Origin: an uncultured Gammaproteobacteria bacterium
GTDB taxonomy: Bacteria > Patescibacteriota > Patescibacteriia > UBA1558 > S5-K13
Assembly (NCBI GenBank): GCA_964639335.1
Contig: CAZXCJ010000002.1
Location: 1 to 48,664 of the forward strand
Length of the DNA: 48,664 nucleotides
Direction: 5' to 3'
Shown here: in pieces, positions 37,994 through 38,260 of the stretch
Numbering within the stretch: the stretch's first letter is position 1
Layout: each line of letters opens with the position of its first letter
The notes under the pieces: model-generated
What the model saw: the letters and a program-made list of their open reading frames with translations, nothing else
Database searches by the model: none
What the model was told of the DNA's origin: nothing
Program-made: the position numbers and the translations under genes

Positions 37994-38081
37994 ATGTTTG
38001 ATAAAGAATTATATCAAGAGAGATATAGAATAAAATCAACCCGATTACCAGATTGGGATTATTCAAATCCGGGGTATTACC
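37994..38081 (+). pseudogene. N-terminal fragment of a RAYT / IS200-like Y1 transposase
   Basis: MFDKELYQERYRIKSTRLPDWDYSNPGYY matches the typical RAYT N-terminus (YRRRS.RL.GYDYS.PG.YF.T). The frame then runs straight into a GC-rich repeat island. Confidence 0.5.
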
Positions 38082-38260
38082 TGCCTTCGCGTGCCGTCGC
38101 CAAAGTGGCTTTGGCACGTCGGCGACCGAAGCGTAGCTTCAGCCTGCCTGCACGAAGCTGAAACTTCGTTTCGGCATGGCAGGCTACGCGTCCATCCTCC
38201 CCCTGCACCATACGGTTCGGGGTGCGGAGGACGGGCAGGCAGGTCCTGAAAGGGACTCTG
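38082..38260. repeat. Mosaic GC-rich hairpin island (module C plus others)
   Basis: 38085-38144 is the reverse complement of 11186-11245. Further hairpins are gcctgcctgcacgaagctgaaacttcgtttcggcatggcaggc and cctccccctgcaccatacggttcggggtgcggagg. Confidence 0.85.

Follow-up and report, generated by a model that had tools for sequence, protein, structure and literature searches.

What lies at the point where a transposase gene gives way to a GC-rich repeat in a small Patescibacteria-type genome? The DNA analyzed here, called the window below, is the whole 48,664-nucleotide (nt) contig C2 of genome G000 (1.07 Mb in 66 contigs, ~30% GC, 95.7% complete), which has been recovered repeatedly from salt-lake metagenomes. 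On its forward strand a chimeric open reading frame (ORF) of 55 codons, 37994 to 38161, consists of 29 residues from a REP-associated tyrosine transposase (RAYT, also called TnpA_REP; REP, repetitive extragenic palindrome) followed by 26 residues encoded by a composite hairpin repeat that begins at 38080. This repeat is one of the GC-rich islands that occupy the spacers of the genome. We consider it reasonably probable that two separate things meet at 38080, a dead RAYT stub and a distinct, CCTGCC-bracketed family of mobile elements, and that the rest of the gene was lost through a rearrangement of the deletion type.

The 5' remnant of the RAYT gene (37994-38080, forward strand) was delimited by tblastn and by DNA alignment to its paralogues. 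The ORF at 37994 reads MFDKELYQERYRIKSTRLPDWDYSNPGYY and then runs through the 26 repeat-derived residues to a stop codon at 38159-38161. Gene callers place the start of the chimeric ORF at an ATG at 37940, inside a polymorphic 48-nt hairpin, and the gene calls on strain contigs are 73 or 55 amino acids (aa) long, according to whether the 48-nt insert is present. An initial annotation, made from the letters of the window, had recognized at 37994 the N-terminus of a RAYT-type Y1 enzyme that is replaced by an island after 29 codons, and had advised searching the genome for an intact gene. Both observations hold, and the search finds two intact genes: in tblastn against its own genome, the 29-residue stub is 82% identical over 28 aa to the gene on contig C14 (E = 8e-14) and 62% identical to the gene on contig C3 (E = 3e-9). 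The comparison with RAYT profiles, likewise advised, gives a divided answer. The stub alone has no Pfam or NCBIfam match, since its residues precede the modelled domain, and it is identified by paralogy only, whereas the intact paralogues match the RAYT profile NF047646 with scores below its equivalog cut-off. The stub ends before the first core strand and the HUH motif, so that neither the HUH nor the Tyr of the catalytic core is retained and it cannot be catalytic. Judged from its paralogues, the stub is a pseudogene remnant, apparently the dead 5' end of a third RAYT copy of the TnpA_REP type (Y1/HUH, subclass 2.4). DNA homology between the stub and the C14 gene sets in 20-45 nt ahead of the ATG, with a hairpin and its T-run (GGGCCGCAA..GCGG TTTTTTT, 37947-37977, forward strand, seen in the alignment of C2, C14, and C3); the intact C14 RAYT is preceded by a homologous hairpin. 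The homology ends abruptly at 38079/38080.

The position at which paralogue homology ceases, 38079/38080, is the exact start of the repeat. All seven near-identical strain contigs that align across the locus show this junction, and since these come from separate assemblies, an assembly artefact is excluded. Nowhere does the assembly contain the 3' part of the third RAYT gene. Beyond the composite, the tail at 38244-38263 (TCCTGAAAGG GACTCTGGTA), recognized by comparing the copies on C2 and C28, is the right arm of a larger inverted repeat. On C28 the copy lies inside this inverted repeat (TACCAGAGTC ... GACTCTGGTA); the window copy has kept the right arm but lacks the left arm, TACCAGAGTC, and its left side is joined directly to RAYT codon 29. 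A gene without its 3' part, abutting an element without its left outer arm, suggests that the joint arose by deletion or rearrangement and not by clean insertion. Thus, the RAYT copy in the window was most likely lost by rearrangement, with deletion favored. One end of the rearrangement would lie within the composite element, and the event would have cost the gene everything past codon 29 and the element the left arm of its outermost stem. The initial annotation had concluded that the local transposase copy was destroyed by its own repeats; the copy is indeed dead and broken at a repeat boundary, but the data described here support neither the word "own" nor a clean insertion. No orthologous locus with an intact RAYT was found: the seven near-identical strain contigs all carry the stub and the composite, and 13 other genomes of the family contain only paralogues (at most 42%) of the neighbouring nucleotidyltransferase, leaving the orthologous locus untraceable in them. 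One contig that runs on as RAYT past 38079 was considered as an intact allele and rejected, as it represents the C14 paralogue, with 6 mismatches in 66 nt.

The element on the other side of the junction is a composite of nested hairpins that spans 164 nt (38080-38243) and is assigned to the CCTGCC...GGCAGG family by its fold and its dispersed copies. A 12-bp outer stem (38080-38091 / 38236-38243, of the type CCTGCCTTCGCG / CGCGCAGGCAGG) encloses hairpin 1 (38092-38126), the two arms of hairpin 2 (GCGTAGC..GCTACGC, 38127-38142 / 38184-38190), a CCTGCC..GGCAGG hairpin nested in the loop of hairpin 2 (38143-38183), and hairpin 3 (38191-38235). Compared with shuffled sequences, the composite folds with z ~ -6, whether treated as DNA or as RNA. 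The whole composite recurs at C28:14319-14133 (98.9%) and C3:24284-24119 (94%), and together with the 20-nt tail it makes up a 185-nt unit. Its first 64 nt, module A (38080-38143), match approximately 20 places in the assembly, several of them at contig ends. The 16-mers of module A are the commonest GC-rich 16-mers of the genome, with 19 copies, and the summed contig word-depth of the module is 20-45 times that of its flanks in four runs, a rough figure that includes contigs of other organisms.

The approximately 20 copies form a series that leads from a 42-nt core to a basic 79-nt form, to forms with other inner hairpins, and to the 185-nt unit. In the window, the basic member (outer stem, hairpin 1, and hairpin 2) is located at 11154-11232 on the reverse strand, adjoining an unrelated hairpin module at 11078-11163, and the core member (CCTGTCTTCGC|CGAAGCGTAGCTTCTGCTACGCGCAGGCAGG) is located at 27269-27310 on the forward strand. 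Comparison of the copies reveals that this core lacks hairpin 1; hairpin 1 therefore sits in the middle of the palindrome CTTCG.CGAAG of the core. In two stems both arms differ in a compensatory way: AAAG/CTTT is replaced by ATAG/CTAT, and GCGTAGC/GCTACGC by GCGAAGC/GCTTCGC. The flanks of the dispersed copies are unrelated at the approximately 20 sites, and no target duplication is visible. Five of approximately 13 independent copies are preceded by TTA, and no conserved target tetranucleotide was established. Separately, we note that a unit resembling hairpin 1 (87% over 51 nt) is found in a genome of a different family (L033:1490-1560, G019:C37:8728-8781), and that this genome also carries the closest RAYT homologue (59%). 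We also note that, directly downstream of the composite in the window, an 82-aa antitoxin-like gene overlaps a ParE-family toxin gene (38327-38841), and that the C28 twin of the composite likewise precedes a toxin-antitoxin pair, of an unrelated, YafQ/YoeB-like type.

How widespread are such structures? When GC-rich patches are defined as at least 62.5% GC in 24-nt windows over a length of at least 30 nt, the window contains 52 of them, in agreement with an earlier count of more than 20. Twenty-seven lie outside genes, and in 15 there are 16-mers with three or more genomic copies; two are the tRNA-Asp and the end of the transfer-messenger RNA (tmRNA), and two belong to the repeats of a diversity-generating retroelement (DGR). 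The genome as a whole holds 804 patches, those of at least 71 nt being mostly intergenic (92 of 115), and the islands account for 10.7% of intergenic bases. The recurrence of the modules in both orientations, and their separation and reordering at 27 kb, had been proposed in the initial annotation with coordinates that were off by at most ~17 nt, and both are confirmed by inverted matches of 97-100%: 11078-11163 with 27165-27250 (86 nt, 98% complementary), 11169-11232 with 38080-38143 (64 nt, 97%), and 11154-11186 with 27279-27311 (33 nt, 100%). A 16-mer reported at both 38958 and 41203 fares less well. CCTACGCCAAGGCTTC is present in both patches (38898-39058 and 41194-41228), but the flanks, downstream of the tRNA-Asp and of the tmRNA, respectively, are not homologous, and we rejected the pair as a homologous site.

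Modules lie within the loops or centres of other modules under a common outer stem, and their order varies among sites. The islands had been described as resembling bacterial interspersed mosaic elements (BIMEs), and as mosaics of recurring modules they do; however, the modules are nested and do not form tandem, alternating REPs with linkers. CCTGCC/GGCAGG motifs are found in most of the largest families of multi-copy GC-rich segments, of which the 24-nt perfect palindrome TACCTGCCTGCCGGCAGGCAGGTA is the simplest, and the top GC-rich 16-mers of the genome all derive from the CCTGCC family. On these sequence criteria, the islands are mostly a separate superfamily of putative small palindromic mobile elements, nested and bracketed by CCTGCC(T/G)...GGCAGG stems. 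A further observation concerns the island at 27 kb: a 171-nt segment (27100-27270) is shared with C54:1307-1477 at 98.8%, and in strain contig L049 the flank from C54 continues into the window on its ABC-transporter side, which reflects either recombination at the island or assembly ambiguity.

Strain comparison reveals units that are present in one sequence and absent from another. The 48-nt GC-rich hairpin unit at 37897-37944 (GCCATAAACC...GGTTCATGGC ends, boundary ambiguous by the 3 nt AAG) is missing in L012, and a contig from the independent run X9 joins 37896 to 37945. At 34097-34098, within another GC-rich hairpin, the window has an empty site at which L005 carries a 42-nt CCTGCC core unit, and an X9 contig joining 34098 to 27271 on the opposite strand represents the filled allele. 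Finally, the 43-nt palindromic unit at 33853-33895 (ACCCCGTGAGATAG...CTATCTCACGGGGT) is present in the window and absent from L005, with no target duplication. The boundary repeats of the three differences are 3, 0, and 2 nt, and the aligned flanks are otherwise at least 99% identical. Most joints in the Logan contigs over 20 kb of the window were short-sided and caused by repeats; the usable ones were the 48-nt skip and the 34098/27271 joint. The nested anatomy, the near-identical dispersed copies, and the presence or absence of units among strains are seen directly, and on these grounds we regard the islands as nested, hairpin-within-hairpin mobile elements. We infer that the strain differences are insertions and that movement proceeds via a single-stranded hairpin intermediate without target duplication. 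Islands would grow, in the manner of a Russian doll, by units lying in the loops, centres, or feet of older hairpins, and whole composites would then be copied to new sites. No candidate for the mobilizing enzyme was identified, although a complete transposase census of the genome was not made. Two strain differences of another kind were also observed: a 22-nt tandem duplication at 37015-37036 (GTTTACTCAGAATTGAGTAAAT/C) is single-copy in strain L012, and 78 nt (26 codons, 10014-10091) of the ORF at 9757-10371 are missing in L039. The latter segment is bounded by the 13-nt direct repeat TGATAATGAAATT, indicating an in-frame, slippage-type length change in an AT-rich gene.

What, then, does the RAYT act on? 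The two intact genes, C14:1527-991 (179 aa) and C3:42237-42800 (187 aa), have diverged from each other. Their proteins score 57.5 and 66.9 bits (E = 1e-15 and 1e-18) with NCBIfam NF047646 (REP_Tyr_transpos), for which the equivalog cut-off is 80, and the Pfam family Y1_Tnp scores 33.6 bits with the C3 protein and 15.9 with the C14 protein, at a cut-off of 23. In the PDB, both match E. coli TnpA_REP (4ER8) best, in an alignment that takes in the HUH region and the motif WQ..F.EH.IR....YI..NP. An HUH motif of the form NH[IFV]H is present in each (MPNHIHG in C14, MPNHIHL in C3) and aligns with that of 4ER8; similarly, vWQksFyEHiIRgenDlnrvreYIrlNPl aligns with iWQprFwEHaIRntkDyrhhvdYIyiNPv of 4ER8, and the Tyr motif of the C3 protein is YIQNNP. 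The intact RAYTs also conserve the GTAG-contacting residues of E. coli TnpA_REP (WQ..EH..R). Subclass 2.4, equivalent to Group 4 of Bertels, is characterized by NH[IFV]H, WQ, YIxNNP, and a length of ~190 aa, and has the oddity of a "double-foot" REP, GT[AG]G...C[TC]AC, in frame within the gene between the HUH and Tyr motifs (Quentin et al. 2018, PMC6006769). Both of our genes contain such a 28-nt double-foot REP (GTAGAGACGCAA..TTGCGTCTCTAC), in frame between HUH and Tyr: GTAGAGACGCAAAATTTTGCGTCTCTAC in C14 and GTAGAGACGCAATGCATTGCGTCTCTAC in C3. With the motifs NHIH, WQ, and YIxxNP, a length of 179-187 aa, and the in-gene REP, the predicted proteins fit TnpA_REP/RAYT subclass 2.4. The genome contains no IS200-type TnpA, its PF01797 matches being the RAYTs alone. 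We compared 61 genomes, the window's own and 60 relatives, whose assemblies are incomplete and for which our statistics ignore kinship; RAYT homologues are present in 27 of the 61, often as several diverged copies and with a few pseudogenes.

The double-foot REP occurs five times in the genome, twice in-gene and three times free, and not within the window. The free copy at C15:6307 is identical to the REP of the C14 gene and that at C30:10789 to the REP of the C3 gene, and a variant, GTAGAGACGGAAAATTTTCCGCCTCTAC, at C4:28322-28349 is read in frame (..VEAENFPSL..) within an ORF of more than 220 codons. The RAYTs of relatives also carry an in-gene double-foot REP. The pattern CGTAGC-N-GCTACG, which we tried as a tracer of the CCTGCC core and discarded, matched the centres of double-foot REPs instead in other genera, and we therefore examined the co-occurrence of REP and RAYT. 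The pattern GTAGAGRC-N6-20-GYCTCTAC is found in 21 genomes, comprising 18 of 27 RAYT-positive but 3 of 34 RAYT-negative genomes (odds ratio 20.7, p = 2.5e-6); after removal of the genome whose single copy is in-gene and of G018, for which the copy positions are unlisted, the odds ratio is 15 (p = 5e-5). On account of this co-occurrence and of the conserved GTAG-contact residues, we propose that the low-copy double-foot palindrome (GTAGAGRC...GYCTCTAC) is most likely the real partner of the RAYT.

The initial annotation had instead cast the islands as the non-autonomous, REP-like substrates of the RAYT, with the gene copy destroyed by the insertion of its own repeat, a model that we now regard as improbable. 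Four sequence comparisons say that the RAYT is probably not the driver of the islands. First, in the test of Bertels, the 16-mers that flank the intact RAYTs reach at most 2-4 copies against a background median of 3 in random 400-nt windows, contrary to the prediction that an intact RAYT would be flanked by the modules. Second, of the 628 feet of 314 distinct GC-rich hairpins, only 20 have a GTAG no more than 5 nt away, and the most frequent tetramers do not include it. Third, raw island density is confounded by genome GC content (27-47%), so AT-rich relatives alone were compared: island sequence amounts to 0.9% in G006 (five RAYT matches) and to under 1% in G007 (two matches), and to 3.1% in the same-genus genome G001, which has no RAYT and carries the same element at 99% identity. 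Fourth, GGCAGGCAGG, a 10-mer of the element ends, is present in 49 of the 61 genomes (0-2 for the reversed control), and its three top loads, 71, 43, and 37, are in the RAYT-negative genomes G002, G024, and G001. The substrate model is also opposed by the junction, which is not a simple insertion, and by the fact that a different palindrome family tracks the RAYT.

Several observations pull the other way and weigh against our separation of stub and islands. The CCTGCC core contains a GTAG-footed mini-hairpin, GCGTAGC-NNNN-GCTACGC, with 5 bp of GTAGC/GCTAC, and GTAG/CTAC is 1.6-1.8-fold over-represented in the islands, so that the RAYT may yet act on these elements. The count of GGCAGGCAGG shows a weak trend, with a median of 6 in RAYT-positive versus 3 in RAYT-negative genomes (p = 0.058) and means of 8.4 versus 8.0, and the absence of the gene from RAYT-negative genomes could be a loss that postdates the spread of the repeats; the assemblies are, besides, incomplete. 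Each of the strain differences may be an insertion or a precise deletion. Moreover, the RAYT-upstream hairpin (GGGYCGCAATTTTTGCGGTTTTTT, GGGTCGCAATTTTTGCGGTTTTTT) has a single further copy in the genome, at C28:14365, where there is no RAYT sequence. At that locus (C28:14133-14388) the hairpin precedes, by 22 nt, another copy of the 185-nt unit of composite and tail that occupies 38080-38263 of the window, a second and unexplained pairing of RAYT-locus sequence with this unit. The C28 locus, which is invariant among strains, may once have held another RAYT that was deleted in full, or it may be a favored target. The substrate model can further appeal to the adjacency of the stub to the most abundant GC-rich repeat of the genome, to the GTAG-contact residues that the RAYT retains, and to strain differences that lack a clear target duplication, as expected of Y1 enzymes.

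Could the islands have arisen with no transposition at all? Palindrome replication errors, caused by intrastrand template switching that makes quasi-palindromes perfect and longer, might create and enlarge the islands, recombination or gene conversion might spread them, and hairpin-stimulated slippage might remove them. Template switching would yield the 8-nt change from GCG|GCTACGC to the perfect hairpin GCGTAGC-TTCA-GCTACGC as well as the paired changes from AAAG/CTTT to ATAG/CTAT; the strain differences are bounded by repeats of 0-3 nt, the island at 27.1-27.27 kb has an alternative junction (L049/C54), and the 22-nt tandem duplication and the 78-nt difference bounded by direct repeats indicate that slippage is active in the population. 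We consider this explanation unlikely, since near-identical copies of 79-185 nt lie at approximately 20 unrelated sites with unrelated flanks, and since the same 10-mer termini are kept across 49 genomes of the order, which argues for sequence-specific recognition and against a random growth of palindromes. Least of all do we credit the suggestion that the islands are host-functional structures (terminators, mRNA stabilizers, protein-binding sites, or small RNAs) repeated under selection: their strong folds (z ~ -6), stems maintained by compensatory changes, and the many smaller hairpins followed by T-runs, such as 37947-37977, would suit such a role, but island density is similar in tandem, divergent, and convergent spacers (10.5-12.2% of bases), the equal density of divergent spacers arguing against terminators, copies run in either direction, near-identical strains differ in the units that they carry, the same-genus genome G003 has almost no islands, and no island matches Rfam, which at gathering score finds only the tRNA-Asp and the tmRNA in the window and in a permissive scan of 37850-39100 one chance-level match to a small nucleolar RNA (E 0.12). 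The modules are thus unlikely to be fragments of known structured RNAs, a possibility allowed for at the outset.

We therefore return to the reading in which a dead RAYT stub adjoins a member of a separate mobile family. A broader proposal, which we put forward tentatively as a possibility, is that the self-nesting CCTGCC...GGCAGG elements are an undescribed, order-wide class of Patescibacteria mobile DNA that is moved without the RAYT by a conserved sequence-specific factor and that reshapes spacers and genes, being involved here in the loss of a transposase copy. What appeared to be one system is in this case divided in two, a described RAYT/REP pair and a far more abundant family of nested hairpins without a known driver. 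The islands make up ~11% of the intergenic DNA of a ~1-Mb genome, break assemblies, and vary among co-occurring strains, and they therefore matter for the assembly and annotation of candidate-phyla-radiation genomes. They also create spurious ORFs, for example the 55-73-aa chimera at 37994. Because the 10-nt ends are conserved across the order, the mobilizer could be sought by phylogenetic profiling.

Two other kinds of repeat were observed in the window. Genome-wide, the commonest 16-mers are AT-rich, with 25 copies of TATTTAACAGGGTAAA, and are located in spacers, for example at 295-329 and 43264-43307; they might serve as a promoter-like or regulatory motif or form a further repeat family. 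In addition, several genes are flanked by arrays with an 8-nt period (TAAACTGY / TAACCATT), which occur in both orientations (19148-19311, 20034-20221, 24580-24671, and 39722-39776).

How do these systems compare with those already described? The transposase side is known biology, a further member of a described subclass. Like other RAYTs of subclass 2.4, those studied here share the motifs and a length of ~180-190 aa, occur as one to a few diverged copies per genome with a patchy distribution among relatives, and carry the in-frame GTAG...CTAC palindrome between HUH and Tyr, with free copies elsewhere. They differ in that the host is a ~1-Mb Patescibacteria-type genome, whereas the subclass has been described mainly from Cyanobacteria and Bacteroidetes, in that the REP family is very small (three free copies), and in that one gene copy is cut to a 29-codon stub. 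The E. coli REP/BIME system with TnpA_REP (REPtron; 4ER8) resembles the islands in its extragenic, GC-rich, imperfect palindromes arranged in mosaics and in the presence, in the same genome, of a Y1/HUH enzyme with conserved GTAG-contact residues. However, the islands are nested rather than built of alternating tandem REPs with defined linkers, usually have no GTAG foot, do not flank RAYT genes, and do not track RAYTs across genomes. Insertions of REPs inside other small palindromes have been noted before (Di Nocera et al. 2013, PMC3733652). Palindrome-associated elements of the IS200/IS605 type and their miniature inverted-repeat derivatives (MITEs) share with the islands hairpin ends and the lack of a clear target-site duplication, but this genome has no IS200-type TnpA.

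Rickettsia palindromic elements are likewise palindromic repeats of a reduced, AT-rich genome without a dedicated transposase. Neither they nor the CGTC-tagged repeats (PMC3733652) have any sequence relationship to the islands, which end in CCTGCC/GGCAGG, not in CGTC, and are mostly intergenic. The GC clusters of yeast mitochondria are short mobile palindromes, rich in GC, that populate a strongly AT-rich genome; they form families with conserved ends, vary in presence among strains, can lie in genes, and have no known dedicated transposase. In comparison, the islands are bacterial, have CCTGCC/GGCAGG termini, and nest hairpin in hairpin up to 150-200 nt. In the literature searched, the coverage of which was partial, we found no description of CCTGCC-ended nested elements of Patescibacteria, and those of this order appear to be undescribed there. 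Due to their nesting, their CCTGCC/GGCAGG ends, their independence of the RAYT, and their AT-rich host, the islands are closer in kind to the yeast mitochondrial GC clusters and the Rickettsia palindromic elements than to BIMEs.

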